64,000 nucleotides of DNA from Elusimicrobia bacterium CG1_02_56_21 (GCA_001871115.1 MNUR01000085.1:22060-86059), one strand, 5' to 3'. Positions 9,298 through 48,432 are shown, numbered from the stretch's first letter. A program made the numbers and translations. The notes: generated by a model not told the origin, from the sequence alone.

Positions 9298-9319
9298 ATA
9301 GTTTGTCCTCATGCAGACT

Positions 9320-10042: not shown

Positions 10043-10450
10043 AAATTATAGAGCGTCCTTGCTTGATATCCTGCAGTTTACCCGCGCGGCGAATACGCCG
10101 GCATTCCAAATATAATACATCTTAACAAATCAGAGCATTTGTGTGACGGTCTGTCGGAATAGGCTGCTGCTTACGTTCAAGGTTCAAGCACATTGACCGC
10201 TTAAATAGCGGCGTAATATGATAAAATCCTCCTCGGGTAAGCTTAAGGTGGAGAAATGGCAAAGGCCGGGGAGCGGCGCGCGCTGAAGGAATTGCTGGGA
10301 CGCGGCAGGGACTCAGTTGAAGTAATACGGAAGTTGCCTGCCGCATTTACCATACCCCTTGCGCCGCTGTGACCCGGCTACTATACTAAACGTGTTCCAC
10401 GCGCCGCCCGGCAGGATAAGCTGTTTTAATTCCCAAGGAGAAGACATTGC

Positions 10451-11119
10451 ATGCTTACACTTCTCGTAATATTCATAGTCCTGGCCCTGGCCGGGACTGG
10501 TTTGACCTATGTGGGGTTGCGCGGCCTGCTGAGCAGGCGCGTAACTATCTATTCGGGAAGATGGCTGTTGGCCCTTATCGCCCTGTGCTTCCTGCCGCAG
10601 CTCATAAACGGCCTTAAACTGCTGGGCTCAGCCACCTCGCTGGCTATAATAAACATCATACTGTACCTGGGCATAATCCTTGTCTTCTGGCTAGTCACCA
10701 AAGGCCATATCCTTTTCGGAGTTTCTGAGGAAACGGCCACGGAAGCGTTAAAAGCCGCGCTGGACAAACTGGGCGTCAAACACGAGCAGCTGCTGGGCTC
10801 CGTTAAGCTGGAGGACGGCGGTATCTTCCAGGTGTCCATACAGGACTGGGTAGGAACCATGCAGCTAAAACCCAAAAATCCCGCGGCGTACCTGAGGTCG
10901 GCCCAGCTCGTAGCCGCGCTTGCCGAGCATTTTTCCGCCTCTACCGCCCCGGTGCGCTTCATGCCGTACTGGATCTACGCTTTCTGCGGCGGTTTACTGC
11001 TGGCCTCGCTGCTGTTCCTGGCCGCCCTGGTAGTGAAACACCCCGGCCACAGGACCCCGCAGCAGCCAAAGCCAAACGCTACCGCCTGCGCACAACAGCA
11101 GCCAGCGCCGCCGCTATAG
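10451..11119 (+). CDS. Hypothetical membrane protein
   Basis: 222-aa ORF with about 4 TM helices flanking a soluble central segment. GGAGAAG Shine-Dalgarno upstream. Confidence 0.5.
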   Translation: MLTLLVIFIVLALAGTGLTYVGLRGLLSRRVTIYSGRWLLALIALCFLPQLINGLKLLGSATSLAIINIILYLGIILVFWLVTKGHILFGVSEETATEALKAALDKLGVKHEQLLGSVKLEDGGIFQVSIQDWVGTMQLKPKNPAAYLRSAQLVAALAEHFSASTAPVRFMPYWIYAFCGGLLLASLLFLAALVVKHPGHRTPQQPKPNATACAQQQPAPPL

Positions 11120-11149
11120 CGATAGCCGCCTGAACCCGGCAATTATGTT

Positions 11150-11857
11150 ATGTGTCTCCCTATCAGGTGCTTAGGAAAATACTTCCGTTTCCTGTTTGCC
11201 GCGCTGCTGGCGGCCGGCCTGGGCATGGCCTTAATTCACATGGCGCAGAAGCCCGGCAGTATTATAAATCCCCCTGCCGCGCCATTAGCCGCCGCGCCAG
11301 AAACGCCGCCCTTTACGGCCGCGAGCAAAACGCTGCCCGCCCCGGCCGCCCCGGCCATACAACCGCTCGGCAGAAGCCTTGAAGGGATCACCACCCGCTA
11401 CAGGAATATTAAACCCAGCTGGATAGAGCCCATAATCTCGGGGCCCCTCGAGGGCGGGACCGTAAGAAAATATACCACCGGCTCCGGCACCGACGACCTG
11501 TACACCCTGGGCGGCGAAGTATACCGCCGGGTAATGTCCTTCCGGCTGGCCGAAATACTGGAACAGGTGGAGGGAACGCACGCCAATTTTTCCGGGCTGG
11601 TTTTCACCTACGGGCTTTACCCTAGCGCCTTCGATAAAGAATATGACGCCTCGGCCATACCGCCCGAGGTAAAGAAGCTGGCAGACGCCTACGGCGAAAA
11701 ATGCGGCGCGCTTGCCGAACCCGGCGCCCGCACAGCGGAACACCGCGAAACGCACGGCGGCTACGTTTTCTACTGCACCAACAGGGACACCACCAGGCTT
11801 ATCTACGGCGTCTGCTCCGAAGGCCTGCTAGCTGCCGGGACCGCAGCCGCAAAATAG
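11150..11857 (+). CDS. Hypothetical membrane-anchored or secreted protein
   Basis: 235-aa ORF with an N-terminal hydrophobic segment (FRFLFAALLAAGLGMALIHMA) and a Pro/Ala-rich linker. Confidence 0.45.
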   Translation: MCLPIRCLGKYFRFLFAALLAAGLGMALIHMAQKPGSIINPPAAPLAAAPETPPFTAASKTLPAPAAPAIQPLGRSLEGITTRYRNIKPSWIEPIISGPLEGGTVRKYTTGSGTDDLYTLGGEVYRRVMSFRLAEILEQVEGTHANFSGLVFTYGLYPSAFDKEYDASAIPPEVKKLADAYGEKCGALAEPGARTAEHRETHGGYVFYCTNRDTTRLIYGVCSEGLLAAGTAAAK

Positions 11858-11882
11858 CCAGCGCGCCCCCTTTCCCAAAACA

Positions 11883-11908
11883 AAACCGCCGGGGAGTCCC
11901 GGCGGTTT
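11883..11908. terminator. Bidirectional rho-independent terminator between convergent genes
   Basis: aaaccgccggg-gagt-cccggcggttt, flanked by an A-run on the left and a T-run on the right. Confidence 0.6.
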
Positions 11909-23094: not shown

Positions 23095-25029
23095 TTAAAC
23101 AAGCTGTTTTATCCTGGCAACCAGGTCCGTAATAGATTCTGTCATCTTGGAACAATCGATGTAGGTCTCTAAATTAAGTTTCTGCCTGCCGTCCGGAGAG
23201 CACCAGAAAACCCGAAAGAGCAGGCCTTCTTCGGTAAGCTCGGCGTGGGCGCCCAGCGGGGTGGCGCAGCCGCCTCCGAGGGTAGCTAGGAAAAGTCTTT
23301 CGCATTCGGCGCAGATGCGCGTGCGGGCATGGTCCAGCCGGCGGACCAGGCGCATGGTCTGCAGGTCGGCCGTGGCGGCCTCTACGGCTATAATTCCCTG
23401 GCCGGGGGCCGGAACAACTTCATCGGCGGTAAAAACCTGGGTGATCCTGTTTTCAAGGCCCAGGCGCTTCAGGGCGGCGTAAGCCACCACTATTGCGTCG
23501 CACTCGCCGCGGTCCAGCTTGGCCAGGCGGGTGTCCATATTGCCGCGCAGGGGGCAGAACACAGCGCCGGGCTTGAGCCTGGCTATCTGGAAGCGCCTCC
23601 GGGAAGAGCCGGTGGCGATCTTCGCCCCGGGAGGCAAATCCGCCAGGCTGCAGCCGGTGCGGGTAATAATAGCGTCGCGCGGATCCTCGCGCTTTAAATA
23701 AGCCCCTATCCTCAGGCCTTCGGCCAGGTCGCCGGGCAGGTCTTTAAGGGAATGCATGGCCAGCTTTATCCCGCCGTCCAGGAGGTCTCGCTCTATTTCT
23801 TTTACAAAAAGGCCTTTACCGTCCGCGGCTATAAGCTTCTCCACCGGATCGGTCAAAAAAATGTCGCCGCTGGTCTTTATGATCTTCTGGCTTATCTCTA
23901 CGCCCTCTTTCCTCACCAGGTCGCAAATGATATTAGTCTGCGCCAGGGCCAGGCGGGAGCCGCGGGTCCCTATCCTCAGGGGCTCGGTAAAAACCGCGGG
24001 GTCCACGGAGGAATCCTGCGAGAACTTCTCCCAGATCTCCGCGCTCTTGGCGTCTATTATGCCCTGCGCCTTCTTTATTTCCTCCGAGAGCTGGGCCAAA
24101 TTCTCGGCCACTATCCGCTCCAGGTCGTCGATATTGTAAAGGTAAACATTGGAAAGGCTGCCCACCTCGGGCTGGATATTGCGGGGCACCGAAATGTCCA
24201 CCAGGAAAATAGGGTTGCCGTGGCGCAGCGCCATTATCTTCTTCATCCCGTCTTTGGTTATTACGGGCTCGGAAGAAGAGGTGGAAACCAGGACCACGTC
24301 GGCTTCGGAGAGGGCGGTCTCGAGGTTCTCCCAGGGTACGCTCTGCGCCGAAAACTTAGCCGCCAGCTCCTGGCCTTTGGCCCGGGTACGGTTGATAACA
24401 GTAAGGGCGGCTTTCTTTTCAGCGAAGGCCGAGGCGGCGGCTTCGGCCATCTCGCCGGCGCCCAACAGCAGCACCTTGGCTTTGTCCAGGTCGCCGAAGA
24501 TGCGGCCGGCGTACTGCACGGCCACAAAAGCCACCGAGCGGCCGCCCTGGCTTATCTTGGTATTCGCGCGCACATGCTTGCCCACGCCTATAGCGCGCTG
24601 AAAAAGGGTATTGGTCAGGCGGCCGGTGGTTCCCGCGCTTTTGGCCCCGTAGTAGGAATCTTTAAGCTGGCCCAGGATCTCGTTCTCCCCCACCACCATC
24701 GAGTCCAGGCCGCAGGCCACATTGAGCAGATGGTCCATGGCCTCTTTGCCGGTCTTGCTGTACAAATGTCCGCCTGAAGACTTATTGTCGTCGTACTGGG
24801 ACTGGTCGCTTAAGAACCCTATCAGGGCCGTTTCGCAGTCTTTCTTTTTTCCCACGGCGTAAAGGTCCACGCGGTTACAGGTGGAAACCCAAACCAGCTC
24901 TTCCGCCGCCAGCTTGCCGCTGGCCAGAGCCCTGAGCAGCAGGCGCTTGCGCTCGGGGCTTATGCTGAAAGCCTCCCGTGTTTCCACGGTACAGGTTTTA
25001 TGAGAAAGGCCGACAAGAACTAGTTCCAT
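23095..25029 (-). CDS. hemA-hemC: Bifunctional glutamyl-tRNA reductase / hydroxymethylbilane synthase (HemA-HemC fusion)
   Basis: HemA: VSTCNRVDLY and NADPH site LLLGAGEMAE. HemC from about residue 347: LRIGTRGSRLALAQT...KTSGD...GNMDTRL...GGGCATPLG. One uninterrupted 644-aa ORF. Confidence 0.9.
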   Translation of the reverse strand: MELVLVGLSHKTCTVETREAFSISPERKRLLLRALASGKLAAEELVWVSTCNRVDLYAVGKKKDCETALIGFLSDQSQYDDNKSSGGHLYSKTGKEAMDHLLNVACGLDSMVVGENEILGQLKDSYYGAKSAGTTGRLTNTLFQRAIGVGKHVRANTKISQGGRSVAFVAVQYAGRIFGDLDKAKVLLLGAGEMAEAAASAFAEKKAALTVINRTRAKGQELAAKFSAQSVPWENLETALSEADVVLVSTSSSEPVITKDGMKKIMALRHGNPIFLVDISVPRNIQPEVGSLSNVYLYNIDDLERIVAENLAQLSEEIKKAQGIIDAKSAEIWEKFSQDSSVDPAVFTEPLRIGTRGSRLALAQTNIICDLVRKEGVEISQKIIKTSGDIFLTDPVEKLIAADGKGLFVKEIERDLLDGGIKLAMHSLKDLPGDLAEGLRIGAYLKREDPRDAIITRTGCSLADLPPGAKIATGSSRRRFQIARLKPGAVFCPLRGNMDTRLAKLDRGECDAIVVAYAALKRLGLENRITQVFTADEVVPAPGQGIIAVEAATADLQTMRLVRRLDHARTRICAECERLFLATLGGGCATPLGAHAELTEEGLLFRVFWCSPDGRQKLNLETYIDCSKMTESITDLVARIKQLV

Positions 25030-28752: not shown

Positions 28753-29406
28753 CTACTGATGGCAGCCTTTGCAGGTTTCTTTATAATCTTTCCTGAGCGG
28801 AACCTTTTTATGCCCGCCTATATCGTGACATTTCACGCAGCCCATCATTTCGGCGTGGGCCTTATGCGGCATTGTTTTGCCGGAGATGGCCGCTATGCCG
28901 TTGGAGGCCGGGACCTTGACGGTTTCCGGCGGGACCTTCACGCCCACCGCCTGGTGGCACTGGGTGGCGCAATAGGAACCGGAAAGAAGCGGCTCGGCCG
29001 AGATATCGGTCAGTTCGACGGCAAGGGCGCGGCCGGTTTCGCCCAGCGCGCGGTCGGCTTCGCGCATGATCAGGGAGGCGAGGTATACATTGTGCTCGCC
29101 GTGAGCCGCCGACAGGAACTGCTCCAGCCTGAAGGCGTGGGCCAGTGACAGGCGCGCTTTTTTAAGCTCGACCTCCGGCTTGGAGGACTTGGCCAGTTCG
29201 CCCTTCGCAGCTTCTATCTTGGCAGCCAGCTGCTTCAGAGAGTTCCTAACATCGTCCTTCACATGGCCCCAGGTCCCCTTGAACTTCTCGCCATGGCATT
29301 TCGAGCAGGCCTGCTCCGAGGCTTTCTGGGTATGGCCGCTGTAGCCGCCGGCCTCGGATTTGTCCTGGTAATGGCAGCCTATGCAGTTGACGCCGGCCTT
29401 GAACAT
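28753..29406 (-). CDS. Multihaem c-type cytochrome (4 CxxCH + 1 CxxxCH), apparently 5-prime truncated with no signal peptide
   Basis: CIGCH, CSKCH, CATQCH, CVKCH, CKGCH. The frame stays open upstream to a TAA at 29497-29499 that is followed at once by CH-QDKH, which looks like the tail of another haem motif. Confidence 0.6.
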   Translation of the reverse strand: MFKAGVNCIGCHYQDKSEAGGYSGHTQKASEQACSKCHGEKFKGTWGHVKDDVRNSLKQLAAKIEAAKGELAKSSKPEVELKKARLSLAHAFRLEQFLSAAHGEHNVYLASLIMREADRALGETGRALAVELTDISAEPLLSGSYCATQCHQAVGVKVPPETVKVPASNGIAAISGKTMPHKAHAEMMGCVKCHDIGGHKKVPLRKDYKETCKGCHQ

Positions 29407-29714: not shown

Positions 29715-31826
29715 TTAGAACTTATAGGCCAGCGAGGCGGTCAGCGTGTGGCCGCTACCGGACAGGGAAGAATACTGTTTGTCCTGGTAACGGTCAAAGG
29801 CGTACCGGCCCTTGATAGAGACGTCCCTGGCGTAGGCGTAATCCGCGCCGACGGAAAGAACGTGCAGATAATTATCTACGGCGCCGTCGTTAGTGGAAGC
29901 CAGCTCGGTGGCGATAAGGCCGCTGGCGATATCCCCCTCGGAGCGGCTGAGCGCGTAGCCGCCAGTCAGCTTCAGGTTCTCTTTCACCTGCCAGTCGGTA
30001 TCCATGGCAAGGGTGGTCGTGTTGATCAGGGACTTGGACTTACCGTGGTTAGTGAACAAGAGCGCTGTTTCATAGCGGCGTTTATTGCTGGTATTATAGA
30101 AGTTCTGAAAGTCGCTCTGGTTCCAGTCTACGCTGACGGATGAGTTGGTTTTGGCGGTAAAAGCCGCGCTCAGGGAAGCGCCGGCAGAATGCAGCACATT
30201 GTGAATGTTTTGCGACATGGTATTATTAGTTACCGCCCCGGTCATAGCTGTATAATCAAGCCCGGTATTGCGGGTGCGGCTATAGCTGTAATAAAAACCC
30301 AGCACCTTGCCGCCCGCAGTTACATAACTGGCATCCGTCTTGACATTAAGAGCTTCCTGCGCCTCTGCCACGGTACCCACCTTAGCCGCTTTCTGATAGG
30401 AAGGGGTCAGGTGTAAAACCAGGCCGTCTACAGGCCGCATAGCGCCTTTCAGGAAGACAGTATCGGATTCGGAATCCGCTTTATAAAGGATTCTCTGGGA
30501 AGGGATGCTCACGCCGGCATTGGTACCCAGAAGGAAGCCGCGTTTCTTTGTTTCATGCTTCCAGCCGGCGCCAAGGCTGTTTTTAGAACCGGCGGGCCGC
30601 AGCGTGGCGTTAAATCCATACTCCGCAGACTTAATGGAAGTCAGTTTCAGGTCCAAAGATTCCTTGTTGGTTGGGTCGTTAAACAAACCGGCGGCGTACC
30701 GGGTAGAATTATTCCACCTGTTTGCGGTTTTCACATAAGCTTCTGTCTCTACGGAGGGGATAGCCAGGCACTTGCCGCTGAGAAAGAAGTTATTGGTGGC
30801 TATCTCGCCTTTTTTATAGTTATTGTCTGTCTGTTTGGTAGCGAAAGAATCCTGGGAAAGCACAGACATCCCGTAGCCGGCCGCCAGGGAAGAATTCTTA
30901 AAAGTCTTGGAGAGCCTTAAAGAATTGGAGTTCAAAGTGCTGTCCTGGATGAAGTGCAGGGGTTTGCTCTGGTTCGCGGCGGTCATCGCGGGATAATACG
31001 CGTCTTTGAAATCCCCGATCGTATAGCCCCTTGCCTGATTTTCGAACTTCTCGAAAGACGCGTCGTAAGCTAATTGGAACCAGTTAAGAGGAGAGGCTGT
31101 AAAGTTAGCTGAAGTCCGGCCCATGAGCTCGTTGACGGGCTTATCGTAACCATGCCAGCGCCTGAGAGGAAAACCACTTTGGAAATCTCCCCCCCCGGAT
31201 ACCCAAGTAGCATAGGTGTTCCCAGTTCTGTTATAGCCTTCATGCTTAACCGAGACGGACGGAATATCGCGCAGCGGCCCGGATTTGGATTTAATCCCTA
31301 CGCCGTAATTAGTGCGGTCCAGCCTGAGAGGGGAACCGCCGGAATCATTGTTAAAGCGCGCCACATAGCCGTCGCCCGTGCCGGTATAAGCGGCGTCCGT
31401 GCCGCCGGTAACATTATTGGCCCTATTGCGGTAATCCAGGCCGACCGAGGCCGAGCGGTACTGAGAATAGAACCCGGAAACATTCACCAGCTCCGAGTCC
31501 ATCCGCACCATGCCGGAGTGGGTGTAAAAACCATAACCCTTCCGCTGAATTGCGATAGAATCTTTGCCGTTGGAATAGGAAAGATCCAGGTCCAGGTCCA
31601 GGTAGGCGCCCGAAACACCGCGGTCCGACCATCCTTTCTGGTAGTCGTAGCGCTGCAGGAACCGGGTATCAGCCGCGTTCCCGCCGCCCACATATTCATA
31701 TATAGACAGCTTGGGCGCCAGTGTGCCGTTGAACCAGCCTTTGCCGGCGGCGCCTTCCTGTGCGTTCACTATAGCCGGGCAGAACAGCGCGGCTAGCAGA
31801 AGATTTAGCAGATTTTTGGATTTCAT
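29715..31826 (-). CDS. MtrB/PioB-like large outer-membrane beta-barrel (porin partner of the decahaem cytochrome)
   Basis: 703 aa, signal peptide MKSKNLLNLLLAALFCPAIVNA, Tyr/Gly/Asn-rich alternating strands, C-terminal SLAYKF. It lies 38 nt downstream of the decahaem gene, the same order as mtrAB/pioAB/mtoAB. Confidence 0.65.
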   Translation of the reverse strand: MKSKNLLNLLLAALFCPAIVNAQEGAAGKGWFNGTLAPKLSIYEYVGGGNAADTRFLQRYDYQKGWSDRGVSGAYLDLDLDLSYSNGKDSIAIQRKGYGFYTHSGMVRMDSELVNVSGFYSQYRSASVGLDYRNRANNVTGGTDAAYTGTGDGYVARFNNDSGGSPLRLDRTNYGVGIKSKSGPLRDIPSVSVKHEGYNRTGNTYATWVSGGGDFQSGFPLRRWHGYDKPVNELMGRTSANFTASPLNWFQLAYDASFEKFENQARGYTIGDFKDAYYPAMTAANQSKPLHFIQDSTLNSNSLRLSKTFKNSSLAAGYGMSVLSQDSFATKQTDNNYKKGEIATNNFFLSGKCLAIPSVETEAYVKTANRWNNSTRYAAGLFNDPTNKESLDLKLTSIKSAEYGFNATLRPAGSKNSLGAGWKHETKKRGFLLGTNAGVSIPSQRILYKADSESDTVFLKGAMRPVDGLVLHLTPSYQKAAKVGTVAEAQEALNVKTDASYVTAGGKVLGFYYSYSRTRNTGLDYTAMTGAVTNNTMSQNIHNVLHSAGASLSAAFTAKTNSSVSVDWNQSDFQNFYNTSNKRRYETALLFTNHGKSKSLINTTTLAMDTDWQVKENLKLTGGYALSRSEGDIASGLIATELASTNDGAVDNYLHVLSVGADYAYARDVSIKGRYAFDRYQDKQYSSLSGSGHTLTASLAYKF

Positions 31827-31864: not shown

Positions 31865-32704
31865 TTAGTAGCGCAGGTGCTGGTCGAAAGCGCTGCCGTG
31901 TATTCCGCCGTGGCAGGCGGTGCAGTTCCTGAGCGCGGCGCCGGTAATACGCGCGCCGGCTGCCGCGCCGACAGCGTGCCGGTTGTCAGCCAGGGAATGG
32001 CAGCGCAGGCACAGAGCGGGCTGGGCAACCGTCAGCAGTTTCTTTATGGGAGAGCCGTGGGGATTATGGCAGGTAAGGCAGTCTTCGGTAACCGGCGGAT
32101 GCTCCATGGTATAGGGTCCGCGCACCGCCTGGTGGCACTTGGTGCAGGTCTCTGTCTTGGCAGTCAGGGCCTGTTTTTTATCGGTATGGGGGTCGTGGCA
32201 GTCCACGCAGGAGATTCCGCCTTCCTTTAAGGGATGGTGGGAAAACATATTGAAGCGGGCGGTCACTTCCTTATGGCAGGAAGCGCATAAGGCGGAATTG
32301 GCGTCCTTGTATTTTGCCGTGTCCGCGCCCTTTACGACCTTGGGCGTATGGTTGCTGTGACAGGCGGCGCAATTGAGGCCGGCCTTTTTATGGTCGGAGA
32401 ACGCCCAGTTCATCCGGTTGGCGTCTTTTACATGACAGACCTGGCAGGCGGCCGCGCCGGGCCTTGCGGGTTTTGTTTCCGGGCCGGGGTTGGCTAAATG
32501 TTTTTCAGTGCCGCTGTGGCACTTCGAGCAATCCTGCTTGCCGTGCACGCCCCTGGCGTGGGAAGACGAGGCTGCGTCATGGCAGGCTGAACACGCCGCA
32601 TTGGCTGTCGTGTCGGCGCGGGCCGCTGGCGGGTTCGAGAGTATTCCTACAGCGAAAGCCAGCAGGGCAATGACCCCACAGGCCTTTACGTTAATCCTAT
32701 TCAT
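31865..32704 (-). CDS. Periplasmic decahaem c-type cytochrome, MtrA/DmsE/PioA-like
   Basis: Signal peptide plus ten CxxCH motifs in 279 aa (CSACH, CSKCH, CQVCH, CAACH, CASCH, CVDCH, CTKCH, CLTCH, CLRCH, CTACH). The C-terminal CTACHGGIHGS resembles the MtrA family. Confidence 0.85.
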   Translation of the reverse strand: MNRINVKACGVIALLAFAVGILSNPPAARADTTANAACSACHDAASSSHARGVHGKQDCSKCHSGTEKHLANPGPETKPARPGAAACQVCHVKDANRMNWAFSDHKKAGLNCAACHSNHTPKVVKGADTAKYKDANSALCASCHKEVTARFNMFSHHPLKEGGISCVDCHDPHTDKKQALTAKTETCTKCHQAVRGPYTMEHPPVTEDCLTCHNPHGSPIKKLLTVAQPALCLRCHSLADNRHAVGAAAGARITGAALRNCTACHGGIHGSAFDQHLRY

Positions 32705-32872
32705 TTAGTTCTCCTGTTTTTTAAAGACCAAGGTCTTATTTGTACTGCGCGTATGTGCCGCAAAAGGCAATACAGTACCAATACACTAGCAAACATGCGG
32801 CAACCGCGTATTAATGTAAAGCAATTGCCGCATTGATTTAAGTTAACCGGTTTAAGCGCGGTCAGCCGCTAA

Positions 32873-33139
32873 GGGCTTGTTAAAGAATAACTGACGCATT
32901 TGGCTGAGCTGATTTTGGAGCGAGCCGAAGCGGCGTGAAGCGACACGTACTCCATGTACTTTAGCGGAACGCCGCAAAGGCGCAGCCCAAAAGCGGCTCA
33001 GCCCCCCGGGGGAGGCCCATCTTTGAACCGGCTGCCGCGTTGCTCCTCACTCACAGACCACCGGTATGCTCGTTCATCGCGCCTTGCATCCGGATCAAAT
33101 ATGGGCCTCCAAATGCGTCAGTTATTATTTAACAAGCCC
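32873..33139. repeat. MITE-like nested palindromic element, family C. It shares its core with family A.
   Basis: 31-bp terminal inverted repeats GGGCTTGTTAAAGAATAACTGACGCATTTGG (32873-32903) and 33109-33139, with 1 mismatch. Inner palindromes GCTGAGC...GCTCAGC and GGAGGCCCAT...ATGGGCCTCC. The core TTTTGGAGCGAGCCGAAGCG...GCGCAGCCCAAAAGCGG matches the reverse complement of family A. Confidence 0.8.
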
Positions 33140-33852
33140 TAACGCCGTGAAACCTGCTCCAGCCTGGCTTTGTCTTTCACCGCGACGTTCCGGCCGGCGA
33201 CGGAGATCCAGCCTTTCTTGCGGAATTCGGCCAGCAGGCGGCAAAGAACTTCCGGGGAGGTCCCGAGCATTTTGGCCAGGTCTCCCCTGGTCTCCGGGAA
33301 CTGTACGCTGGCAGAGCCCTTGGCAACGGCCCTCTCCACTATATATTTAGCCAAGCGTCCTCTTACGGTTTTAAAGCCGAAGTCCAGCAGCTGCTCCTCG
33401 GAGCGGCCAAGCTCCGCGGCAAAGCGGGTCAGCAGGGCGCGGCAGACCTGAGGGATCTCCAGGAAATTTTTCTCGAAATAGGCCCCGTCCAGGAAACAGA
33501 TCCGGCAGTCTTCCAGCGCTTCGCCAGTGCCCAGATAGGCTTCACCGGCAAGGAAAGAGCGGTCCCCCAGCAGGGCCGGGGCCTCTATCACACGGGGAAT
33601 GCTGGAATGAAGCCCCGTATCCGTCCTTATTATTTTAACCCGGCCTGTACAGAGGAAATACACGCCGAAAGGGCGATTGCCCTCGTAAAAAATAATATTG
33701 CCTTTGCGGTAATCATTGGTTATCCTCTTTTTGCAGAAGCCCTCCCATACCGCGTCAGGAACTGCGGCGAAGACCGGCATTTTCAGCATCGGGCATTTGC
33801 ACTTTGCCGCTTCAAAGGTTTCACACTTACACTTCGGACTGATAGTTTTCAT
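33139..33852 (-). CDS. Crp/Fnr-family transcriptional regulator with an N-terminal Cys cluster
   Basis: cNMP-binding-type beta-roll (IIFYEGNRPFGVYFLCTGRVKI) and C-terminal HTH (RGDLAKMLGTSPEVLCRLLAEFRKKG). N-terminus has SPKCKCETFEAAKCKCP. Confidence 0.85.
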   Translation of the reverse strand: MKTISPKCKCETFEAAKCKCPMLKMPVFAAVPDAVWEGFCKKRITNDYRKGNIIFYEGNRPFGVYFLCTGRVKIIRTDTGLHSSIPRVIEAPALLGDRSFLAGEAYLGTGEALEDCRICFLDGAYFEKNFLEIPQVCRALLTRFAAELGRSEEQLLDFGFKTVRGRLAKYIVERAVAKGSASVQFPETRGDLAKMLGTSPEVLCRLLAEFRKKGWISVAGRNVAVKDKARLEQVSRR

Positions 33853-37683: not shown

Positions 37684-39024
37684 TTATAACTTCAGCGCGT
37701 CTACAAAATCAGCGAGTTCTTTATCGGTTCCGTCGAAAGGGGGCATGGTAGCTGCGGGATTCCTTAAGATGTTCTTCAGCTCTTCTTTGGTGTGCAGCTG
37801 CAGGGGTTTCTCCAGGTTAGGGCCGAAAGTACCGCCTTCGCCGTTATAAGTGTGGCAGACCAGGCAGCCGCGCGCTTCCAGCTCCACTTCCACATCGTGT
37901 TTTGAAGCCGATGGTTTAACCGGCGCGGACTTGGCCGCGGCGGTTTTAACGGGTTCGGGTTTAGGCGCCTGCTTTGCCGGAGTTTTCACTTCTGCGGCAG
38001 CCTTGGTTTCTGCAGCCGCAATCCCGGCTTTTTTAGGCGCGGCTACCAGAGCCCCGGTCATATACATATGCCCGTATATCAAATAAGGCTTCCTGGCCCG
38101 CTCGCGTGTGTAAGCTCCGAATGAAAAAGCTGTGAGCGCGGCCAGGCCGCCGGCGAGCAGAACTTTCCGCTTTGTCTTACGGGAGAGCAGGTAAACGGCG
38201 GAACAGGCAACGGCTATCGTGGCCAGGCTGGCCATGGGCCAGAAGAATTTGGCTACCGGGCCTTTTACTATGCTGTCGAAGACCGCCAGATTTATGTATT
38301 TAAGGGTGAATAAATAAGACAGGCCGCTTAAAGGCTGGAGCAAAATAGCCACGGCGAAGATGGTTCCGCAATAATCCAGCATCCAGGAATAATAGCCGGC
38401 GTCGGCGGCCGGCGCTTTACGCAGTTTAATGAAAGCGTAGATATAGCCGAACATAGCTGAATTTATCAGGCAGGGGAGCAGCACATGGGTGCTGGAGGCG
38501 GCGAAGCTGGGATTAAAGACCGCGTTCATAAGACGGGGATCCTGGAAATAGGTACCCGGGGTCAGCATAAAAGACCAGGCGGCGTTTATGACCAGCGCCG
38601 CGGCTATACCGGAAGCCGCCGCTACCCCGCCTATGAAGATATGCCGGCCTTTATTTGGGTTATCCCAGGTTCCGCCGTAGAGCGCGGTAGAAGCCATCAT
38701 TACCAGGAAGAGAACCGCTTCAAGGAAAAGCGGCCAGAAGAAGATATTGTAAAGTTTTGAAGTGAACTCGGGGAAAAGCCCGATGAGGAGAACCACAAAA
38801 GTAACGCCCAGCACGCCGTTTATCTTCATCATGTCGGAAAGGAAATTTATATAACCTTTCGCGAACCTGTCATGAAAAGCGCTGTTCTTCCTGTAGCCTA
38901 TCCATTCCCCGGTAAAAGCCAGGAAAACACCCCCAACCGCCACGAAAGCGAAAAAAACATGGGTAACAATGACCAGCGCCATTACCAGGGAATTACCGAG
39001 GAAAGGGAAATTTATATGGGGCAT
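37684..39024 (-). CDS. Cytochrome bd subunit I (CydA)-like membrane protein fused to a C-terminal monohaem cytochrome c domain
   Basis: The N-terminus LVMALVIVTHVFFAFVAVGG...FWPLFLEAVLFLVMM resembles CydA helices 1-3. About 9 TM helices, an Ala/Lys/Pro linker, then CLVCH...MPPF. The family call is tentative. Confidence 0.5.
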   Translation of the reverse strand: MPHINFPFLGNSLVMALVIVTHVFFAFVAVGGVFLAFTGEWIGYRKNSAFHDRFAKGYINFLSDMMKINGVLGVTFVVLLIGLFPEFTSKLYNIFFWPLFLEAVLFLVMMASTALYGGTWDNPNKGRHIFIGGVAAASGIAAALVINAAWSFMLTPGTYFQDPRLMNAVFNPSFAASSTHVLLPCLINSAMFGYIYAFIKLRKAPAADAGYYSWMLDYCGTIFAVAILLQPLSGLSYLFTLKYINLAVFDSIVKGPVAKFFWPMASLATIAVACSAVYLLSRKTKRKVLLAGGLAALTAFSFGAYTRERARKPYLIYGHMYMTGALVAAPKKAGIAAAETKAAAEVKTPAKQAPKPEPVKTAAAKSAPVKPSASKHDVEVELEARGCLVCHTYNGEGGTFGPNLEKPLQLHTKEELKNILRNPAATMPPFDGTDKELADFVDALKL

Positions 39025-43332: not shown

Positions 43333-43782
43333 TTATTTCGCTTCCTCTTTCTTCTCTTCGCTCTTCTTCCTGTCCACGTCTACGTGGGGGCTGTGGCAGT
43401 CGCGGCAGTCGCGGCCTTTGCCGTTTATCATCTTTTTCTTATCGGCCATGGGGGCTTTCATGTGAAGGCTGCCCGCGCCGTGGCAGGCTTCGCACTGCAC
43501 GTTGGCCATTTCCGGGGTAGCTTCCATGGAGACAAAGCCGCCGGTTTCGCCCATGCCGGTAACATGGCACTTTACGCACTCGGGTTTTTTCCGGTCTTCG
43601 GCGGTAAGAGCATCTATCGCCGTAGCATGCTTCATCTTCATCCAGGTAGCGTGCTGCTTGGAATGACACATTTTGCACTTGCCTGCGCCGAGGTACGTAG
43701 CTGTTGCGGGCGCGTCCTGGGCCACAACTATTCCGGCTATGCCCATGAACACCAGACACCCGAGCAATGATATCGTTTTCAT
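43333..43782 (-). CDS. Periplasmic tetrahaem c-type cytochrome
   Basis: Signal peptide MKTISLLGCLVFMGIAGIVVAQ. CKMCH, CVKCH, CEACH, CRDCH. AGGAGG Shine-Dalgarno before the ATG at 43782. The longest ORF starts at 43866. Confidence 0.8.
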   Translation of the reverse strand: MKTISLLGCLVFMGIAGIVVAQDAPATATYLGAGKCKMCHSKQHATWMKMKHATAIDALTAEDRKKPECVKCHVTGMGETGGFVSMEATPEMANVQCEACHGAGSLHMKAPMADKKKMINGKGRDCRDCHSPHVDVDRKKSEEKKEEAK

Positions 43783-43996
43783 TTTTCCTCCTGAGGATCT
43801 AGAACAGATAAAACAATACTTATTTAGAAATGGTTGCAGGCTGGCGGACTGCCCACGGACTTGCAAGCATTACTCTGATTATACAGTTTTTTTTGAGGTT
43901 ATGCCAAAGAGCCGGACCCGGCCGCTATAGGACCGGGTTCCAGAGCGCTGCCGGGTTAAAAAAGCTTATTGAATAAGGGAAAGCCGAAATTCGGGA

Positions 43997-45319
43997 TTAA
44001 GGGTTTTCGGAGGGAGCCTTGTCGCGGCCCCATCTGCCGGGGGAAACCCCGGTTTTAAGGTTTCCGGACTGGACTGCGGCTTTATCCCCGCTTATCCCGG
44101 CAGAATGCGGCTCAGTATCAGCCTGCAGCCGGCCGGTCAAGATAGGAACGGCTATTTTAAGTATTAAGGTGTAAATAAAGAAACCAAGGGCCCAGATTCC
44201 CGCGCAGATCAGGATTTCGTTATAGGTAGGCAGATATTCGACTATCTCGCCCAGGGGATTGGGAATAAAAGCCGGGATTATAAAACCCATCCCTTTCTCT
44301 ATCCAGACCCCTATTATAGCCAGGACGCAGGCAGCGTTGAGCCATTTAAGTTTGCGGGAAGCCGGCAGCATCAAAAGCAGGAAAGCGGTCACGTTCATCC
44401 CCAGCGCGGTCCAGATCCAGGGAACCAGCGCGCTATGTCCGTGCAGGCCGAACAGGAGATATTTAATATGCGCCACATGCTGGGTCTGCATGTAAAACTC
44501 TTTAAAGACTTCGCTGAGAAAAAGAAAAATATTTATCGCCATCGCTACCTGTACCACGTCCCTCAGCCGCAGCACCGCCCCGTCCAGGATATTATAGGAA
44601 GTATAGCGCCGCACCAGCTGGAGAATGAGAATAAGGAAGGCGGGTCCCGCCGTGAAAGCCGAGGCCAGGAAACGCGGCGCGATAATGGAAGAATGCCAGA
44701 AAGGACGCCCGGCCAGGCCCTGGTAGAGAAAAGCCGTAACGGTATGAATGCTTACGGCCCAGACTATTGAAAGCAGGACAAAAGGGATATAGAGGAGCTT
44801 GAGCGGCTCCCGCTTTAAAAAACGCATATAAAGCAGGTACCCGGCGACATAAGCGTTAAGGAAAAGATAACCGTTTAAGACTATAACATCCCAGGTAAGC
44901 AGGGAGCTGGGCCAGTTAAAATTTCCCAGCGGCGGCGGCAGCATATGCCAGACCCTTTCCGGGCGCCCCAGGTCCACGGTTACGAACAGCATGGCCATTA
45001 TAAGCGTGGCAACGGCCAGGATCTCGCCGAAAACCACCACATCGTGCATATGATGGTCGTGATAGATATAAACCGGGATAACCATCATTACCGCCGCGGC
45101 GGCCATGCCCACCAGGAAGGTGAAATTGGCAATATAAAGGCCCCAGGAGACATGATCCGACATCCCCGTGGTCCCGAGACCGTGCACGAACTGCACGCAA
45201 TAAGCGTTGATCCCGGCCAGGGTAATAAGCGCAAGGGCCGACATCCAGGCGTAATAGCGCCAGTCGCCGTTCAGGACTTCCCCTGCGGAAAGCCGGAAAA
45301 ATCTGAGAAGATTAGACAT
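43997..45319 (-). CDS. NrfD/PsrC-family integral membrane quinol-interacting subunit
   Basis: About 10 TM helices with a NrfD-like N-terminus (WGLYIANFTFLVGMAAAAVMMVIP). The ATG at 45319 overlaps the FeS gene end by 8 nt. Confidence 0.8.
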   Translation of the reverse strand: MSNLLRFFRLSAGEVLNGDWRYYAWMSALALITLAGINAYCVQFVHGLGTTGMSDHVSWGLYIANFTFLVGMAAAAVMMVIPVYIYHDHHMHDVVVFGEILAVATLIMAMLFVTVDLGRPERVWHMLPPPLGNFNWPSSLLTWDVIVLNGYLFLNAYVAGYLLYMRFLKREPLKLLYIPFVLLSIVWAVSIHTVTAFLYQGLAGRPFWHSSIIAPRFLASAFTAGPAFLILILQLVRRYTSYNILDGAVLRLRDVVQVAMAINIFLFLSEVFKEFYMQTQHVAHIKYLLFGLHGHSALVPWIWTALGMNVTAFLLLMLPASRKLKWLNAACVLAIIGVWIEKGMGFIIPAFIPNPLGEIVEYLPTYNEILICAGIWALGFFIYTLILKIAVPILTGRLQADTEPHSAGISGDKAAVQSGNLKTGVSPGRWGRDKAPSENP

Positions 45320-46265
45320 CGGTGTAATAATAGAACCTGGGCACCGTGCCAAGTTCTTCCTTAAAGATATATACGCGCTTGTCGCGGATAATGCTGGAGA
45401 TCTCGCTGTCAGGGTCCAGCATATTCCCGAATTTCCGCGAGCCCGTGGGGCAAACTTCCAGGCAGGCCGGGTATTTCCCCGCCCGCGTCCGCTGCAGGCA
45501 GAAAGTGCATTTCTCCATTGTGCCTTTAGGCCTGGGCCGGTTGGAGAGATAATCTATCTTCGGATTAAAATCTTTTTCAGGCAGATAGGGCTCTTTGAAA
45601 TTAAAACGCCTGGCATGGTAGGGACAGGCGGCCTCGCAGTAGCGGCAGCCGATGCACCAGTTATAATCCACCACCACTATCCCGTCGGGCTCCCTCCAGG
45701 TGGCTTTAACCGGGCAGACCTTGGTGCAGGGCGATGTTTCACAATGATGGCACTGCACCGGCATGTAGTAATGGCCCTCTTTAGGGACCTGGCCCTCGTA
45801 ATCGATGCTGGATTTCTCCACATCGATATTCCCCTTCTCCATCTGCAGCACGCTTATATATTGTATCTGGGGGTCCCGGGACTGGTTATTTTCTTTCATG
45901 CAGGCGTAAACGCATTTCCGGCAGCCCACGCAGCGCCCGATATTAAGGGCGTAAGCGTACTGCACCCCGTCCATAGGCGGAAGGGCGGTCAGTTGCGGGG
46001 CGGCCCCGTATTTTTCCTGCAGCTGAGAGGCTATCCTTTCAAGGACCTCTTTCTTCTGGCCGGGAGTAAGCTCGGTAAAATGTTTTTGCAGCATCTCTCG
46101 CAAAGGAGGGAATCCGCCAAAATCCCTCAGGGGAGAGAGCGCGGCCGCCGCGGCTGCGGCGGCGCCGGCGGCAGCCACGGCGAGGAACTGCCTGCGGGTA
46201 ACGCCGGAGCCATAGGGCTTGGGATGGGAAAAGGGGGCTCCTTGCGGATCTTTTTCTTCGGCCAT
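45312..46265 (-). CDS. Tat-exported 4x[4Fe-4S] ferredoxin subunit (NrfC/PsrB/DmsB-like)
   Basis: Twin-arginine signal VTRRQFLAVAAAGAAAAAAAA. Cys clusters CVGCRKCVYAC, CHHCETSPCTKVCP, CIGCRYCEAACP, CTFC...CLEVCP. TAATG overlap at 46265. Confidence 0.85.
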   Translation of the reverse strand: MAEEKDPQGAPFSHPKPYGSGVTRRQFLAVAAAGAAAAAAAALSPLRDFGGFPPLREMLQKHFTELTPGQKKEVLERIASQLQEKYGAAPQLTALPPMDGVQYAYALNIGRCVGCRKCVYACMKENNQSRDPQIQYISVLQMEKGNIDVEKSSIDYEGQVPKEGHYYMPVQCHHCETSPCTKVCPVKATWREPDGIVVVDYNWCIGCRYCEAACPYHARRFNFKEPYLPEKDFNPKIDYLSNRPRPKGTMEKCTFCLQRTRAGKYPACLEVCPTGSRKFGNMLDPDSEISSIIRDKRVYIFKEELGTVPRFYYYTDV

Positions 46266-46873
46266 TAATGAGTCTCTCCCGGAGTATTGTGTTTTAACGG
46301 GGCCGGAGCGGCCTTCATCGGCTTGAAAGCCGGGGAGTGGGGGTCGTGGCAGGCAATGCAGACCAGGTTCTTTTGCTCGCCAGCGGTTTTGTCCCAGTAA
46401 CCATTGCGGCGCCCATGGGTCCCTCTCTGCCAGTCCCTGTACGTGGGGCCGTGGCATTTAGCGCAAAGCGTTTCCACTTTGGAAAAAGGTATCTGCCCGC
46501 CGCCATTGGCCGCAAAAAAATCCCGCTTGCCGTTATTATGGCAGTTGAAGCAGCGGTTGTTCGAACCGTGCTTTAAAACCACCTTATTATGTATTTCGGG
46601 GGCTGTCCTGGGGTCCTGGTCGGTGGGGTCCGAGTGGCAGTCTCCGCAGGCCATGCCCATGGTCCCGAGTTTTTTTCCTACTGTCCTGACGGGGGAAATA
46701 TCGTAATACTCGGGCTTCATTACAAAAGCGCGGGGGCCCTGCTCAGAGGTGTGCCTGTTGGTATAGAAGAACCAGGCTGCCGCAACGCAAGCCGCGCCTA
46801 CCGCTATAAGCAGCAGCGTGGGGATTTCCGTATTACGGAAAGCGTCGGTTTTTTTCCAGTCTTGCTCTGACAT
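46265..46873 (-). CDS. Membrane-anchored tetrahaem c-type cytochrome
   Basis: N-terminal TM IPTLLLIAVGAACVAAAWFFY. CGDCH, CFNCH, CAKCH, CIACH. Confidence 0.8.
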   Translation of the reverse strand: MSEQDWKKTDAFRNTEIPTLLLIAVGAACVAAAWFFYTNRHTSEQGPRAFVMKPEYYDISPVRTVGKKLGTMGMACGDCHSDPTDQDPRTAPEIHNKVVLKHGSNNRCFNCHNNGKRDFFAANGGGQIPFSKVETLCAKCHGPTYRDWQRGTHGRRNGYWDKTAGEQKNLVCIACHDPHSPAFKPMKAAPAPLKHNTPGETH

Positions 46874-46949
46874 TTTTAAACAAATCTAAACGCTCCGGAT
46901 AACCGGAATTCAAGCGCAAAGAGAAAACAAAGGCTGCGCTCTTCCCGGT

Positions 46950-47291
46950 TCAGGGCTTTTGCGCAGCGCCGGGAGTTTTTACAAATTTAACCAGTTCCGC
47001 TATCTGCTTGTCGCTCAGCTTATTTTTAAAGGCGGGCATTTTCCCTTTCCCGTCATGAATCGCCTTTGCTAGGTCAGCGTCAGCCTTTGCCTGTACTTCC
47101 TCGCTGGTAAGGTCCATCTCCGAGGGAGCTACTTTAAAGACTTTAGTCATTGCAGGGACGCCTTTTGCGTCTTTGCCGTGGCAGGAAACGCAAAGGCTTT
47201 TATAATTCCGGGAGGCTTCAGCGGCAAAAGACGGCATAGCCTGCCCGCAAAGCAGCAGAATTCCCGAGATCGCGGCCGTTCTTTTTATCAT
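46950..47291 (-). CDS. Monohaem class I c-type cytochrome
   Basis: Signal peptide, CVSCHGKDAKG and a distal Met in GKMPAF. Confidence 0.85.
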   Translation of the reverse strand: MIKRTAAISGILLLCGQAMPSFAAEASRNYKSLCVSCHGKDAKGVPAMTKVFKVAPSEMDLTSEEVQAKADADLAKAIHDGKGKMPAFKNKLSDKQIAELVKFVKTPGAAQKP

Positions 47292-47439
47292 GATGTTTTT
47301 CTTGCCGACTATTTAAAGCGTAAAGCCCTGCTGTCCGGTCAGGCAGATATCAGCAGGTTCCGGAACATTTTTAAATTATACAATTTCATCCCCTCCAGGT
47401 AAAGAGAACTTCGATATAATCACTACTAATATTCTGCTA

Positions 47440-48195
47440 TTACGCCGCATTCTCGCCCAGCGGAGGGCGCTGACCGCCTTTGCCGGCAAACCTTGATATC
47501 CAGATGCTCAGCTCGTAAAGGACCAGCATAGGCGCCGTAAAAAGAAGCATGTTAAAAATATCGGAGGTAGGGGTGATAACGGCCGCAACTATAAGTATCG
47601 CTACTATCGCGTAACGGTATTTGCTTCTCAGCAGGCGGTGGTCGATGATCCCCAGCCTTGTAAGTATATAGCTTAGAACCGGCATTTCAAAAACGAGGCC
47701 GCAGCCCATAACGGTCCAGGTGACGAAAGAAATATAGTTCTGGGCCGAGATTAGCGGCTGAAGCTCTTCTCCCGCAAAGCCGATAAGGAAAGCGATAGCC
47801 GGAGGGATCAGGATAAAATAAGAGAACAGGACTCCGAGCGAAAAAGAGAGCATTACCCCCCCCACAAAGACAAAAACATTGCTTTTCAGTTTCGAACCGG
47901 CGGCCGGCTCTATGAATTTCCAGGCCTGGAACAGCAGAAAAGGCATGGACAGTATCAGGGCGGAGATAAATGAAATATTAAGGTAGACCGCCAGGGCTTC
48001 GGTAGGCGAAAAGAAGACCAGCTTGTCCACTACCCCTGAGATAGGCTGCTTTATGACCTTAAACAGCAGCGAGGAATAATTGAAGGACAAGCCGAAAGCG
48101 CAGGCGAAAAAAGCGAGCGAATACAGCAGCCTGCGTCTTAATTCATCCAGGTGGGACGGTAAAGGAAGTACGGGGTCCATGAGGAGTAAAGACAA
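47440..48195 (-). CDS. tatC: Twin-arginine translocase subunit TatC
   Basis: HLDELRRRLLYSLAFFA..., six TM helices, typical TatC layout. Confidence 0.9.
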   Translation of the reverse strand: MSLLLMDPVLPLPSHLDELRRRLLYSLAFFACAFGLSFNYSSLLFKVIKQPISGVVDKLVFFSPTEALAVYLNISFISALILSMPFLLFQAWKFIEPAAGSKLKSNVFVFVGGVMLSFSLGVLFSYFILIPPAIAFLIGFAGEELQPLISAQNYISFVTWTVMGCGLVFEMPVLSYILTRLGIIDHRLLRSKYRYAIVAILIVAAVITPTSDIFNMLLFTAPMLVLYELSIWISRFAGKGGQRPPLGENAA

Positions 48196-48246: not shown

Positions 48247-48432
48247 TTATTTCAGCAGTTTTTCGTCAGCCGGGGATTTCTCTTCCGTGGTTTCCCTCAT
48301 GCCTTTTTTGAATTCTTTTATGGTCGTGGCTACGGACTTGCCCAGCTCGGGAAGCTTGTTGGCGCCGAAAAGAAGAACGCAGATAAACACTATAAAAAGC
48401 ATTTCCGGCGTATCCATTCCTAATATTCTCAT
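48247..48432 (-). CDS. tatA: Twin-arginine translocase subunit TatA/E
   Basis: LFIVFICVLLFGANKLPELGKSVATTIKEFKKG. Confidence 0.85.
   Translation of the reverse strand: MRILGMDTPEMLFIVFICVLLFGANKLPELGKSVATTIKEFKKGMRETTEEKSPADEKLLK

Follow-up and report, generated by a model that had tools for sequence, protein, structure and literature searches.

A DsrO/DsrP-homologue and tetrahaem cytochrome locus in Elusimicrobia bacterium CG1_02_56_21, encoding a putative quinol:cytochrome c oxidoreductase

Gene organisation of the locus

A 64,000 nucleotide (nt) stretch of the Elusimicrobia bacterium CG1_02_56_21 genome sequence (GCA_001871115.1, MNUR01000085.1:22060-86059), referred to here as the window, was analysed around five consecutive genes at positions 43333 to 47291. 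These encode three cytochromes c, an iron-sulfur (FeS) protein, and a membrane protein of the NrfD type. A first-pass annotation, made from the sequence alone, had described them as a single module for electron transfer between quinol and the periplasm. All five genes are present on the minus strand with the coordinates and motifs given there. They are named g1 to g5 in the direction of transcription, and g2 to g4 are referred to as the trio.

The first gene, g1 (47291-46950), encodes a protein of 113 amino acids (aa) with a Sec signal peptide and a single CXXCH haem-binding motif (CVSCH). The 202 aa product of g2 (46873-46265) has an N-terminal transmembrane helix at residues 17-35, a linker, and CXXCH motifs at residues 76, 108, 137, and 172. 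A twin-arginine motif (TRRQFL) is present in the 317 aa product of g3 (46265-45312), the 16 cysteines of which form four ferredoxin-type groups. The g4 product (45319-43997) is 440 aa, with 10 hydrophobic helices and a match to Pfam NrfD at 3e-39. Finally, g5 (43782-43333) encodes 149 aa with a signal peptide, four CXXCH motifs, and a match to Pfam Cytochrome_C554. By these motifs and Pfam matches, the architecture of the trio is as first described: an anchored tetrahaem cytochrome, a four-cluster FeS protein exported by the twin-arginine translocation (Tat) system, and a haem-free NrfD subunit.

The junctions within the trio are tight, as had also been noted. The stop codon of g2 (46267-46265) and the ATG of g3 (46265-46263) overlap by 1 nt in a TAATG, and g3 and g4 overlap by 8 nt (45319-45312). 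Between g4 and g5 there is a gap of 214 nt, and g5 ends 8 nt before the start of sirC, which overlaps cobA/hemD by 4 nt. Candidate sigma-70-like promoters, identified by consensus match only, lie on the minus strand upstream of g1 (47375-47403; TTTACC-17-TATAAT, 10/12) and upstream of g5 within the g4-g5 gap (43878-43907; TTGGCA-18-TATAAT, 11/12). Because of the 214 nt gap, the strong promoter-like site, and the closeness of sirC, g5 is set apart from the genes before it. The transcription units therefore appear to be better described as a tight g1-g4 operon, with g5 heading a neighbouring haem biosynthesis operon. Of the five-gene module originally proposed, it is the g1-g4 part that stands, while g5, with a promoter-like site of its own and sirC immediately downstream, falls outside it.

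No small open reading frame (ORF) resembling TMH1 is found in the g4-g5 gap. Pfam scans covering approximately 50 ORFs of the 64 kb, for the most part the largest ones, identified no molybdopterin, Dsr, or hydroxylamine oxidoreductase (HAO)-type protein, in agreement with the earlier statement that a molybdopterin catalytic subunit is absent. An Rfam scan of the whole window identified one tRNA and nothing else.

The cytochromes

The g1 protein matches Pfam Cytochrome_CBB3 and Cytochrom_C, its top family matches are to cbb3 subunit III, c6, and c551 types, and its C-terminal half contains a methionine. It is likely to be a periplasmic monohaem class I cytochrome c that would serve as a soluble electron acceptor or shuttle. 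Class I cytochromes c of the His/Met type have, as a rule, a high potential. Comparable genes occur at other loci carrying the trio, which are cited here by number. At L007 a monohaem cytochrome c upstream of the trio is not matched to g1 by phmmer and a second copy further downstream is; dihaem g1-like cytochromes are upstream of the trio in L013-L015.

In the family alignment, g2 has four invariant histidines in addition to those of the haem motifs (H95, H102, H153, and H179), and bis-His ligation of all four haems is therefore possible. Its sole extra cysteine, C29, is inside the transmembrane helix and is not conserved. The best curated matches are weak and are to NrfB (29.7 bits against an NCBIfam cutoff of 184). 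An AlphaFold2 model of g2, based on an alignment of 32 sequences, is of low confidence, with a mean predicted local distance difference test score (pLDDT) of 59.5 and a predicted template modelling score (pTM) of 0.42, and is too poor for fold comparison.

From its signal peptide and Pfam match, g5 is a soluble periplasmic tetrahaem cytochrome that is c554-like. In nitrifiers, HAO has cytochrome c554 as its redox partner. Among the loci examined, g5 is confined to contigs of the window's own population.

Family placement of the iron-sulfur and membrane subunits

Placement of the FeS and NrfD-like subunits by family models and phylogeny had been proposed as a check on the first-pass annotation. 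When this was done, g4 was identified as a homologue of DsrP and g3 as a homologue of DsrO, with QrcC and QrcD well below their cutoffs and ActC a weak match. The g4 protein scores 423.7 bits against the NCBIfam DsrP model (cutoff 350), followed by QrcD (54.4 bits, cutoff 570) and TtrC (27.8 bits, cutoff 314). The curated NrfD model is not among its NCBIfam matches. The top match of g3 is DsrO, where its 163.8 bits fall short of the cutoff (200), and then come QrcC (148.5, cutoff 400), TtrB (133.4, cutoff 416), ArrB (129.3, cutoff 450), and NrfC (111.1, cutoff 377.6). In a PDB set that contains no DsrMKJOP entry, the closest chains to g4 are ActC, at a weak 2e-15 to 1e-7, and g3 has weak matches to PsrB and ActB chains.

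The Elusimicrobiota homologues of g4 are labelled 'DsrP' by the Prokaryotic Genome Annotation Pipeline (PGAP). The DsrP model gives 426 bits for a DsrP representative from the Archaeoglobales and 410 bits for a Phycisphaerales homologue in an HAO-type operon. Since genuine DsrP and HAO-linked homologues score alike, both the model and the PGAP label identify the family, and are not evidence for sulfite reduction.

The aspartate of the VDLGRP motif is present in g4, and its equivalence to DsrP Asp107 was drawn through an alignment to an Archaeoglobales relative that is off by one. According to a cryo-electron microscopy preprint (10.64898/2026.08.25.746951), Asp107 is strictly conserved and sits between the menadiol pocket and a periplasm-facing cavity, quinol is oxidised at DsrP, and the electrons pass to DsrO and then to DsrJ.

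A neighbour-joining tree was made from 65 NrfD proteins, using Poisson distance and 100 bootstraps. The named representatives of the NrfD family at 50% identity are from the Archaeoglobales, the Magnetococcales, 'Deltaproteobacteria', and BMS3Abin14, and the presumed canonical DsrP clade is anchored by one named sequence. In this tree g4 clusters with trio-linked NrfDs of the Elusimicrobiota (77/100 bootstraps). With that single canonical anchor, a split that separates every trio-linked NrfD from the whole Archaeoglobales DsrP clade is recovered in 84/100. The NrfDs of Desulfobulbaceae trios are a separate clade (100/100), apart from the clade of the Elusimicrobiota and the Planctomycetota-Verrucomicrobiota-Chlamydiota (PVC) group.

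A combination of such genes has been described before. The 'dsrOhPh-tetrahaem' locus of cable bacteria encodes homologues of DsrO and DsrP and a tetrahaem cytochrome in which all haems are bis-His (PMC13047784). It is found in cable bacteria, other Desulfobulbales, and some Beta- and Gammaproteobacteria (PMC13047784; PMC10926707; bioRxiv 10.64898/2026.08.25.746951). In the cable-bacteria literature it is reported to be separate from dsrTMKJ and to occur also in organisms without sulfur metabolism. The same literature has speculated that it transfers electrons from quinol to periplasmic cytochromes, and had earlier called it a candidate alternative complex III (ACIII).

A Desulfobulbaceae metagenome-assembled genome (MAG) of unspecified relation to the cable bacteria, reached via a 53%-identical representative, stood in here for the published Ca. 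Electrothrix and Electronema proteins. Its locus, L092, has homologues of g2 to g4 in the same order. The cytochrome matches the g2 family hidden Markov model (HMM) at 1.6e-41, the FeS protein scores 192.9 bits against DsrO (below the cutoff of 200), and the NrfD protein scores 424.2 bits against DsrP and is 52% identical to g4. The cytochrome of a further locus, L094, matches the g2 family HMM at 2.5e-41. Because all three subunits are shared between L092 and the window, the window trio is placed in the DsrOhPh-tetrahaem family. On these scores g3 and g4 are homologues of DsrO and DsrP, and the trio belongs to this family rather than to ACIII or Qrc.

As in the published loci, there is a Tat-exported DsrO homologue, a 10-helix DsrP homologue near to but outside canonical DsrP, and an adjacent all-His tetrahaem cytochrome, at a locus away from dsrMKJ; no Dsr genes are present in the 64 kb or in the inspected loci of relatives. 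The window differs in that the anchor is built into the cytochrome, with no separate small TMH1 protein, in having the additional upstream monohaem cytochrome c and downstream c554-like tetrahaem genes, and in its Elusimicrobiota-type host. Canonical DsrMKJOP has in common with the window the DsrO-like and DsrP-like subunits, including the aspartate of the quinol-site motif in g4. However, DsrM and DsrK are missing from the window, the other operon partners are different, and the place of DsrJ, a trihaem cytochrome with one His/Cys haem (10.64898/2026.08.25.746951), is taken by the tetrahaem bis-His g2.

Distribution and synteny in relatives

A profile made from the g2 alignment was used to scan 185,579 species genomes, and at least 596 loci encoding a g2 relative were identified. 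Synteny was counted on the best 80 of these loci, with the order of the trio taken from stop coordinates. The 80 are from Elusimicrobiota (20), Planctomycetota (40), Verrucomicrobiota (13), Omnitrophota (1), and Hydrogenedentota (1), with 5 unclassified. The order tetrahaem-FeS-NrfD is kept in every one of the 62 loci that have enough downstream sequence. The nearest named relatives are Elusimicrobiota MAGs. An identical g4 is present on NCBI record PFQA01000107.1 (GCA_002793335.1), which we take from the accession series to be from the Crystal Geyser aquifer, and on several metagenome contigs.

Directly after the NrfD gene, an HAO-like octahaem cytochrome of approximately 500 aa is encoded in 26/32 Planctomycetota and 10/10 Verrucomicrobiota loci (36/42 together). 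Including one Hydrogenedentota and one unclassified locus, the octahaem is in the operon in 38 of the 45 non-Elusimicrobiota loci. It is found in none of the 13 Elusimicrobiota loci with room for it, nor in the 64 kb window. Elusimicrobiota loci instead have a pentahaem cytochrome of approximately 260 aa upstream (12/19) or, in a few cases, a mono- or dihaem class I cytochrome.

The best PDB match of the octahaem is 4qo5 (6e-48), followed by anammox HAO-like proteins and the Nitrosomonas HAO. The 4qo5 entry is presumably the Ignicoccus hospitalis octahaem, and we take the closest solved relatives to be reductases. Enzymes of that kind would need an electron donor, which implies that quinol is oxidised by the trio. 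With an HAO-like octahaem as the usual partner in the operon, the trio would therefore be a general periplasmic electron supply, rather than one specific to extracellular electron transfer (EET). In the passages searched of papers on Phycisphaerae, the octahaem is described as a putative nitrite reductase and the trio as its operon partner is not mentioned.

The conserved tetrahaem-FeS-NrfD-octahaem operon is represented by L011 (8001-12496) and occurs at 37 other non-Elusimicrobiota loci, for example L025, L034, L043, and L048. A conserved protein of approximately 150 aa with no family match often follows the octahaem in the Planctomycetota and Verrucomicrobiota. ResB/CcsA genes come after the operon in L038, L039, and L060. 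At L011 the operon adjoins genes for Crp, Rrf2, and a hybrid-cluster protein, a setting suggestive of N-oxide metabolism. TatC genes are beside the trio in seven loci (L010/L012, L013, L015, L086, and L002/L003 of the window's own population) and tatA alone is present in L071; the adjoining tat genes in several lineages fit the need for export of g3. A cytochrome-rich region adjoins the trio in L007 (12695-21267), with the second monohaem cytochrome c, a 6-haem NapC/NirT-like protein, a CbcL-like protein (9 haems plus Ni_hydr_CYTB), a glutamyl-tRNA reductase gene, and a 792 aa 9-haem cytochrome.

The surrounding gene island

From approximately 23.1 to 48.4 kb the window is a single 25 kb island with all genes on the minus strand, containing genes for alternative haem synthesis (sirohaem-dependent and Ahb-type), System II cytochrome c maturation, and TatAC, together with the trio and a conduit similar to Mtr. 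It starts with a hemA-hemC fusion encoding glutamyl-tRNA reductase (GluTR) and porphobilinogen deaminase (23095-25029; 644 aa). This is followed by CcsA/ResB, a truncated multihaem ORF, a 703 aa porin candidate, an MtrA-like decahaem cytochrome, and a Crp-family regulator. Next are two radical-SAM enzymes (possibly AhbC/AhbD), hemL, a CydA-like/cytochrome c fusion, ahbA/B-like genes, hemB, cobA-hemD, sirC, g5 to g1, tatC, and tatA. The tatC gene (47440-48195) is directly upstream of g1 and tatA (48247-48432) is upstream of tatC; these are export machinery for g3.

The MtrA-like decahaem (31865-32704) has 10 CXXCH motifs, scores 177.1 bits against the DmsE family (cutoff 192.2), and matches PDB 6r2q chain A at 1.8e-32. 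That chain is taken as MtrA, despite its molecule label, and by these features the MtrA-like protein of the window is genuine. It adjoins a putative porin gene (29715-31826), encoding 703 aa with a signal peptide, a C-terminal ...AYKF, and no Pfam or NCBIfam match. This protein may represent an unclassified porin family of a porin-cytochrome conduit. After a 310 nt gap from 29715 there is an ORF at 28753-29406 (217 aa, four CXXCH, no signal peptide). Its alignment is confined to residues 399-607 of a 609 aa 13-haem cytochrome of L042 and L023, encoded there beside the trio, and a stop codon directly precedes a leftover 'CH'.

Between the Crp-family and MtrA-like genes there is a 32 nt inverted repeat (32872-32903 and 33109-33140), the arms of which are 97% complementary and 205 nt apart. 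A 25 nt inverted repeat (33011-33035 and 33086-33110) is nested in the same intergenic region. The repeats at 32872-33140 have no Rfam match and could be an insertion like a miniature inverted-repeat transposable element (MITE) or a structured element.

The CydA-like membrane protein with a C-terminal monohaem cytochrome c domain (37684-39024) has CLVCH at residue 387 and approximately 7 transmembrane helices. In its match to Pfam Cyt_bd_oxida_I, no more than the N-terminal half of the profile is covered, and no cydB is adjacent. Homologues of the fusion adjoin the trio loci L044, L051, and L056. The fusion could itself oxidise quinol, as a rival to the trio for the place of inner-membrane partner of the conduit.

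In one Elusimicrobia MAG, at L042, a same-strand string of genes encodes an MtrA-like decahaem (256.7 bits, above the cutoff), an MtrB/PioB-like protein (179.6 bits), cytochromes with 19, 13, and 5 haems, a g2-like tetrahaem, and, at the end of the contig, the first 85 aa of the FeS protein. L023 has the cytochromes of L042, but not MtrAB.

Proposed function and alternatives

The product of the g1-g4 genes is probably a (mena)quinol:cytochrome c oxidoreductase that is bound to the membrane and belongs to the 'DsrO/DsrP-homologue plus tetrahaem' type. The first-pass annotation had suggested such an oxidoreductase, one lacking a catalytic subunit, and this reading is supported by the family membership, the synteny, and the absence of a molybdopterin gene nearby. 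The direction of electron flow, the quinone species, the proton coupling, and the final acceptor set out below are proposals drawn from the sequence. Quinol would be oxidised by g4 at a periplasm-facing pocket of this haem-free NrfD/DsrP-like subunit, with the protons released to the periplasm. The electrons would then cross the four [4Fe-4S] clusters of the Tat-exported g3, enter the four bis-His haems of the anchored g2, and be passed from there to soluble periplasmic cytochromes, these being the monohaem g1 and probably the tetrahaem g5. Without a catalytic subunit of their own, g2 to g4 would form a unit that supplies the periplasmic pool of cytochromes. In the Planctomycetota and Verrucomicrobiota the same trio would feed the HAO-like octahaem reductase of its operon. 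In Elusimicrobiota-type organisms the likeliest sinks would be periplasmic cytochromes and, via them, the MtrA-like/porin conduit, or a terminal oxidase or reductase encoded elsewhere.

A specific link from the trio to the conduit, and with it a role in EET, is plausible and should be regarded as tentative. The module had been proposed as the inner-membrane entry or exit point for the conduit, and the gene string of L042 and the one-strand island are in keeping with this, with NetBCD as a precedent for an Nrf-type quinol dehydrogenase that feeds an Mtr conduit. Several observations weigh against it, or against the wider function proposed. The trio and the conduit are separated by 11 kb and by 11 haem biosynthesis and other genes, and no FNR-type site common to both was found. 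A search for TTGAT-N4-ATCAA with up to 2 mismatches gave 15 FNR/Crp box matches against 13.9 expected, none of them upstream of g1, and so no sign of co-regulation. Direct synteny between trio and conduit is seen in 1/19 Elusimicrobiota loci, many of which are on short contigs. The CydA-like/cytochrome c fusion is nearer to the conduit than is the trio, and recurs beside trio loci. The 703 aa porin candidate has no detectable similarity to MtrB/PioB, either with family models or by BLASTP against the L042 protein. The ORF at 28753-29406 seems to be what is left of a large multihaem cytochrome gene, as a truncated remnant or a pseudogene. Since it corresponds to the C-terminal third only and has no signal peptide, the conduit cluster looks partly decayed. 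As to the oxidoreductase itself, the bootstrap support in the phylogeny is moderate. The direction is not fixed by sequence, given that the NrfD-type Qrc is a quinone reductase (PMC6303296). In addition, the evidence spans 64 kb, and an HAO-like partner, quinone biosynthesis, and terminal oxidases may be encoded beyond it.

It is possible, if unlikely, that the locus is instead a minimal ACIII, with electrons passing from quinol through g2 and g1 to a terminal oxidase or an N-oxide reductase whose gene lies elsewhere, the conduit being unrelated. The subunit logic is parallel, with an anchored multihaem cytochrome (ActA), a four-cluster FeS protein (the C-terminal part of ActB), an NrfD-like ActC, and a monohaem ActE. 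Among solved structures, the nearest NrfD relatives of g4 are the ActC chains, ActB chains align with g3, the cbb3 subunit III, c6, and c551 types are the top families of g1, and the cable-bacteria homologue once carried the name 'candidate alternative complex III'. However, the window lacks the ActB1 molybdopterin-like domain, ActD, and a second NrfD-like protein (ActF), having one NrfD gene, and the anchored cytochrome carries four haems instead of five. The 64 kb contains no haem-copper oxidase, only the CydA-like/cytochrome c fusion. The g4 protein is also much closer to DsrP, at 424 bits, than to ActC, at 60 bits. On this evidence the comparison originally made with a stripped-down ACIII is not upheld as a family assignment. 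Nor is that with the Cbc-type complex Cbc4, which probably matches another, paralogous trio.

There is a small chance that the trio serves an unlinked multihaem enzyme outside the window, such as an HAO-like nitrite or hydroxylamine reductase, in the way that NrfBCD serves NrfA. An octahaem is in the operon in most Planctomycetota and Verrucomicrobiota loci, as counted above, the weak best matches of g2 are to NrfB, and g5 is in the c554 Pfam family. Yet no octahaem is found in the Elusimicrobiota loci with room for one or in the window, and the Elusimicrobiota loci have a small pentahaem or class I cytochrome upstream in its stead.

Operation in reverse is improbable. The complex would then be a quinone reductase, with extracellular Fe(II) or minerals as the source of electrons, which would travel by way of the MtrA-like/porin conduit to g1 or g5 and on through g2, g3, and g4, driven uphill into the quinone pool by the proton-motive force. 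The conduit of the window consists of a decahaem and a putative porin only, with no MtrC-type outer cytochrome, like MtoAB and PioAB. The only large cytochrome nearby is a truncated remnant, and g1 is of the class I His/Met type. [quoted passage not shown] On the other side, no carbon-fixation or oxidase genes that would place Fe(II) oxidation were seen in the window. An HAO-like octahaem, the solved kin of which are presumably reductases, accompanies the trio in most relatives, and this points to quinol oxidation, while DsrP has been reported as menaquinol-oxidising (10.64898/2026.08.25.746951).

It is most improbable that g2 to g4 represent the JOP part of a DsrMKJOP complex split in two, working in dissimilatory sulfite reduction or in the oxidation of sulfur. 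In favour of this, g4 exceeds the DsrP cutoff and its Elusimicrobiota homologues are so named by PGAP, and the best match of g3 is DsrO. Against it, there is no dsrM, dsrK, dsrAB, or dsrC in the window, g3 falls short of the DsrO cutoff, g2 carries four bis-His haems and lacks a conserved free cysteine, in contrast to the trihaem DsrJ with its His/Cys haem, HAO-linked Phycisphaerales homologues score equally well with the DsrP model, the trio-linked NrfDs split from the Archaeoglobales DsrP clade, and published structure predictions failed to fit DsrOh/DsrPh onto DsrMKJ.

Relation to other quinol-linked complexes

Cbc4 of Geobacter sulfurreducens consists of CbcS, CbcT, and CbcU, encoded by GSU0068-0070 (bioRxiv 10.1101/2025.04.14.648717). 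Compared by architecture, it is like the window trio: an anchored bis-His tetrahaem, a four-cluster FeS protein, and a membrane subunit, in the same gene order. Cbc4 has likewise been proposed as a quinol:periplasmic cytochrome oxidoreductase. It differs in that the haem core of CbcS is described as similar to that of NrfH/CymA.

A second, paralogous trio (type 2) is found in some genomes, either in tandem with or close to the first (L010/L012 at 7472-9945, L015, L092 at 289-2812, and L094 at 9322-11884). It has an NrfH-like anchored tetrahaem of 150-170 aa, an FeS protein of approximately 255 aa, and an NrfD protein of approximately 405 aa. The type-2 NrfD is 19% identical to g4 and separates from it in 100/100 bootstraps. 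On the contig of the nearest relative the type-2 trio is in tandem with the first trio, and it is absent from the window. At L092, a Rieske protein, a cytochrome b, and a pentahaem cytochrome are encoded between the type-2 and type-1 trios (2887-5303), followed by a 10-haem cytochrome of 706 aa.

Twelve residues of CbcS can be read from published primers, these being DFGVHE from residue 30 and RTKAYC at 59-64. These 12 residues match the type-2 cytochrome of L092 at corresponding positions (DFGVEE at 30-35 and RGKQYC at 60-65) and do not match g2. Orthology of the window trio with Cbc4 was therefore set aside. By this short comparison, Cbc4 probably corresponds to the type-2 trio, and its relation to the window trio would be one of functional analogy and not orthology.

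The subunit composition of NetBCD is assumed here to be of the Nrf type. NrfBCD and NetBCD resemble the window in combining a multihaem cytochrome, an NrfC-type FeS protein, and an NrfD-type membrane subunit that pass quinol electrons to a periplasmic acceptor. NetBCD of Aeromonas hydrophila is listed among the functionally characterised quinol dehydrogenases of the MtrCAB pathway (PMC8805035). The window proteins are, however, below the NrfB and NrfC cutoffs, g4 has no match to the NrfD model, and g2 is membrane-anchored with four haems rather than five. The difference from Qrc is that the window has no QrcB-like gene and that the QrcC and QrcD models score far below cutoff. The membrane anchors of Psr, Ttr, and Arr are also unlike the window, in that no molybdopterin gene is present among the approximately 50 scanned ORFs, and the TtrB, ArrB, and TtrC scores are below their cutoffs.

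Implications

The trio is a member of a recently recognised family, and the cross-phylum synteny is the most useful by-product of this analysis. The family is on the scale of at least 596 species genomes, in the Elusimicrobiota, Planctomycetota, Verrucomicrobiota, Omnitrophota, and Hydrogenedentota, as well as the Desulfobulbaceae. Annotation pipelines label its NrfD subunit as DsrP or as a polysulfide reductase subunit, and as a result false calls of sulfur cycling are possible in metagenomes. The octahaem within the operon in the PVC group, together with the conduit string of L042, is the clearest genomic clue so far for the export of electrons from quinol to periplasmic cytochromes. Tractable organisms are suggested by cultured Phycisphaerae reported to have an HAO-like octahaem, among them Po. 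corsica, in which the octahaem may be linked to the trio.

A more speculative possibility is that the trio is a single, widespread, and unrecognised class of inner-membrane quinol dehydrogenase, acting as octahaem donor in the Planctomycetota and Verrucomicrobiota and rewired to small cytochromes and Mtr-type conduits in the Elusimicrobiota. If so, it would be a further inner-membrane entry point for EET beside CymA, CbcL/MtoC, ImcH, and NetBCD, and the role of the DsrOhPh-tetrahaem cluster in cable bacteria would be answered as the feeding of periplasmic cytochromes. For the organism itself, the window suggests how an Elusimicrobiota-type inhabitant of groundwater could join its quinone pool to an outer-membrane conduit.

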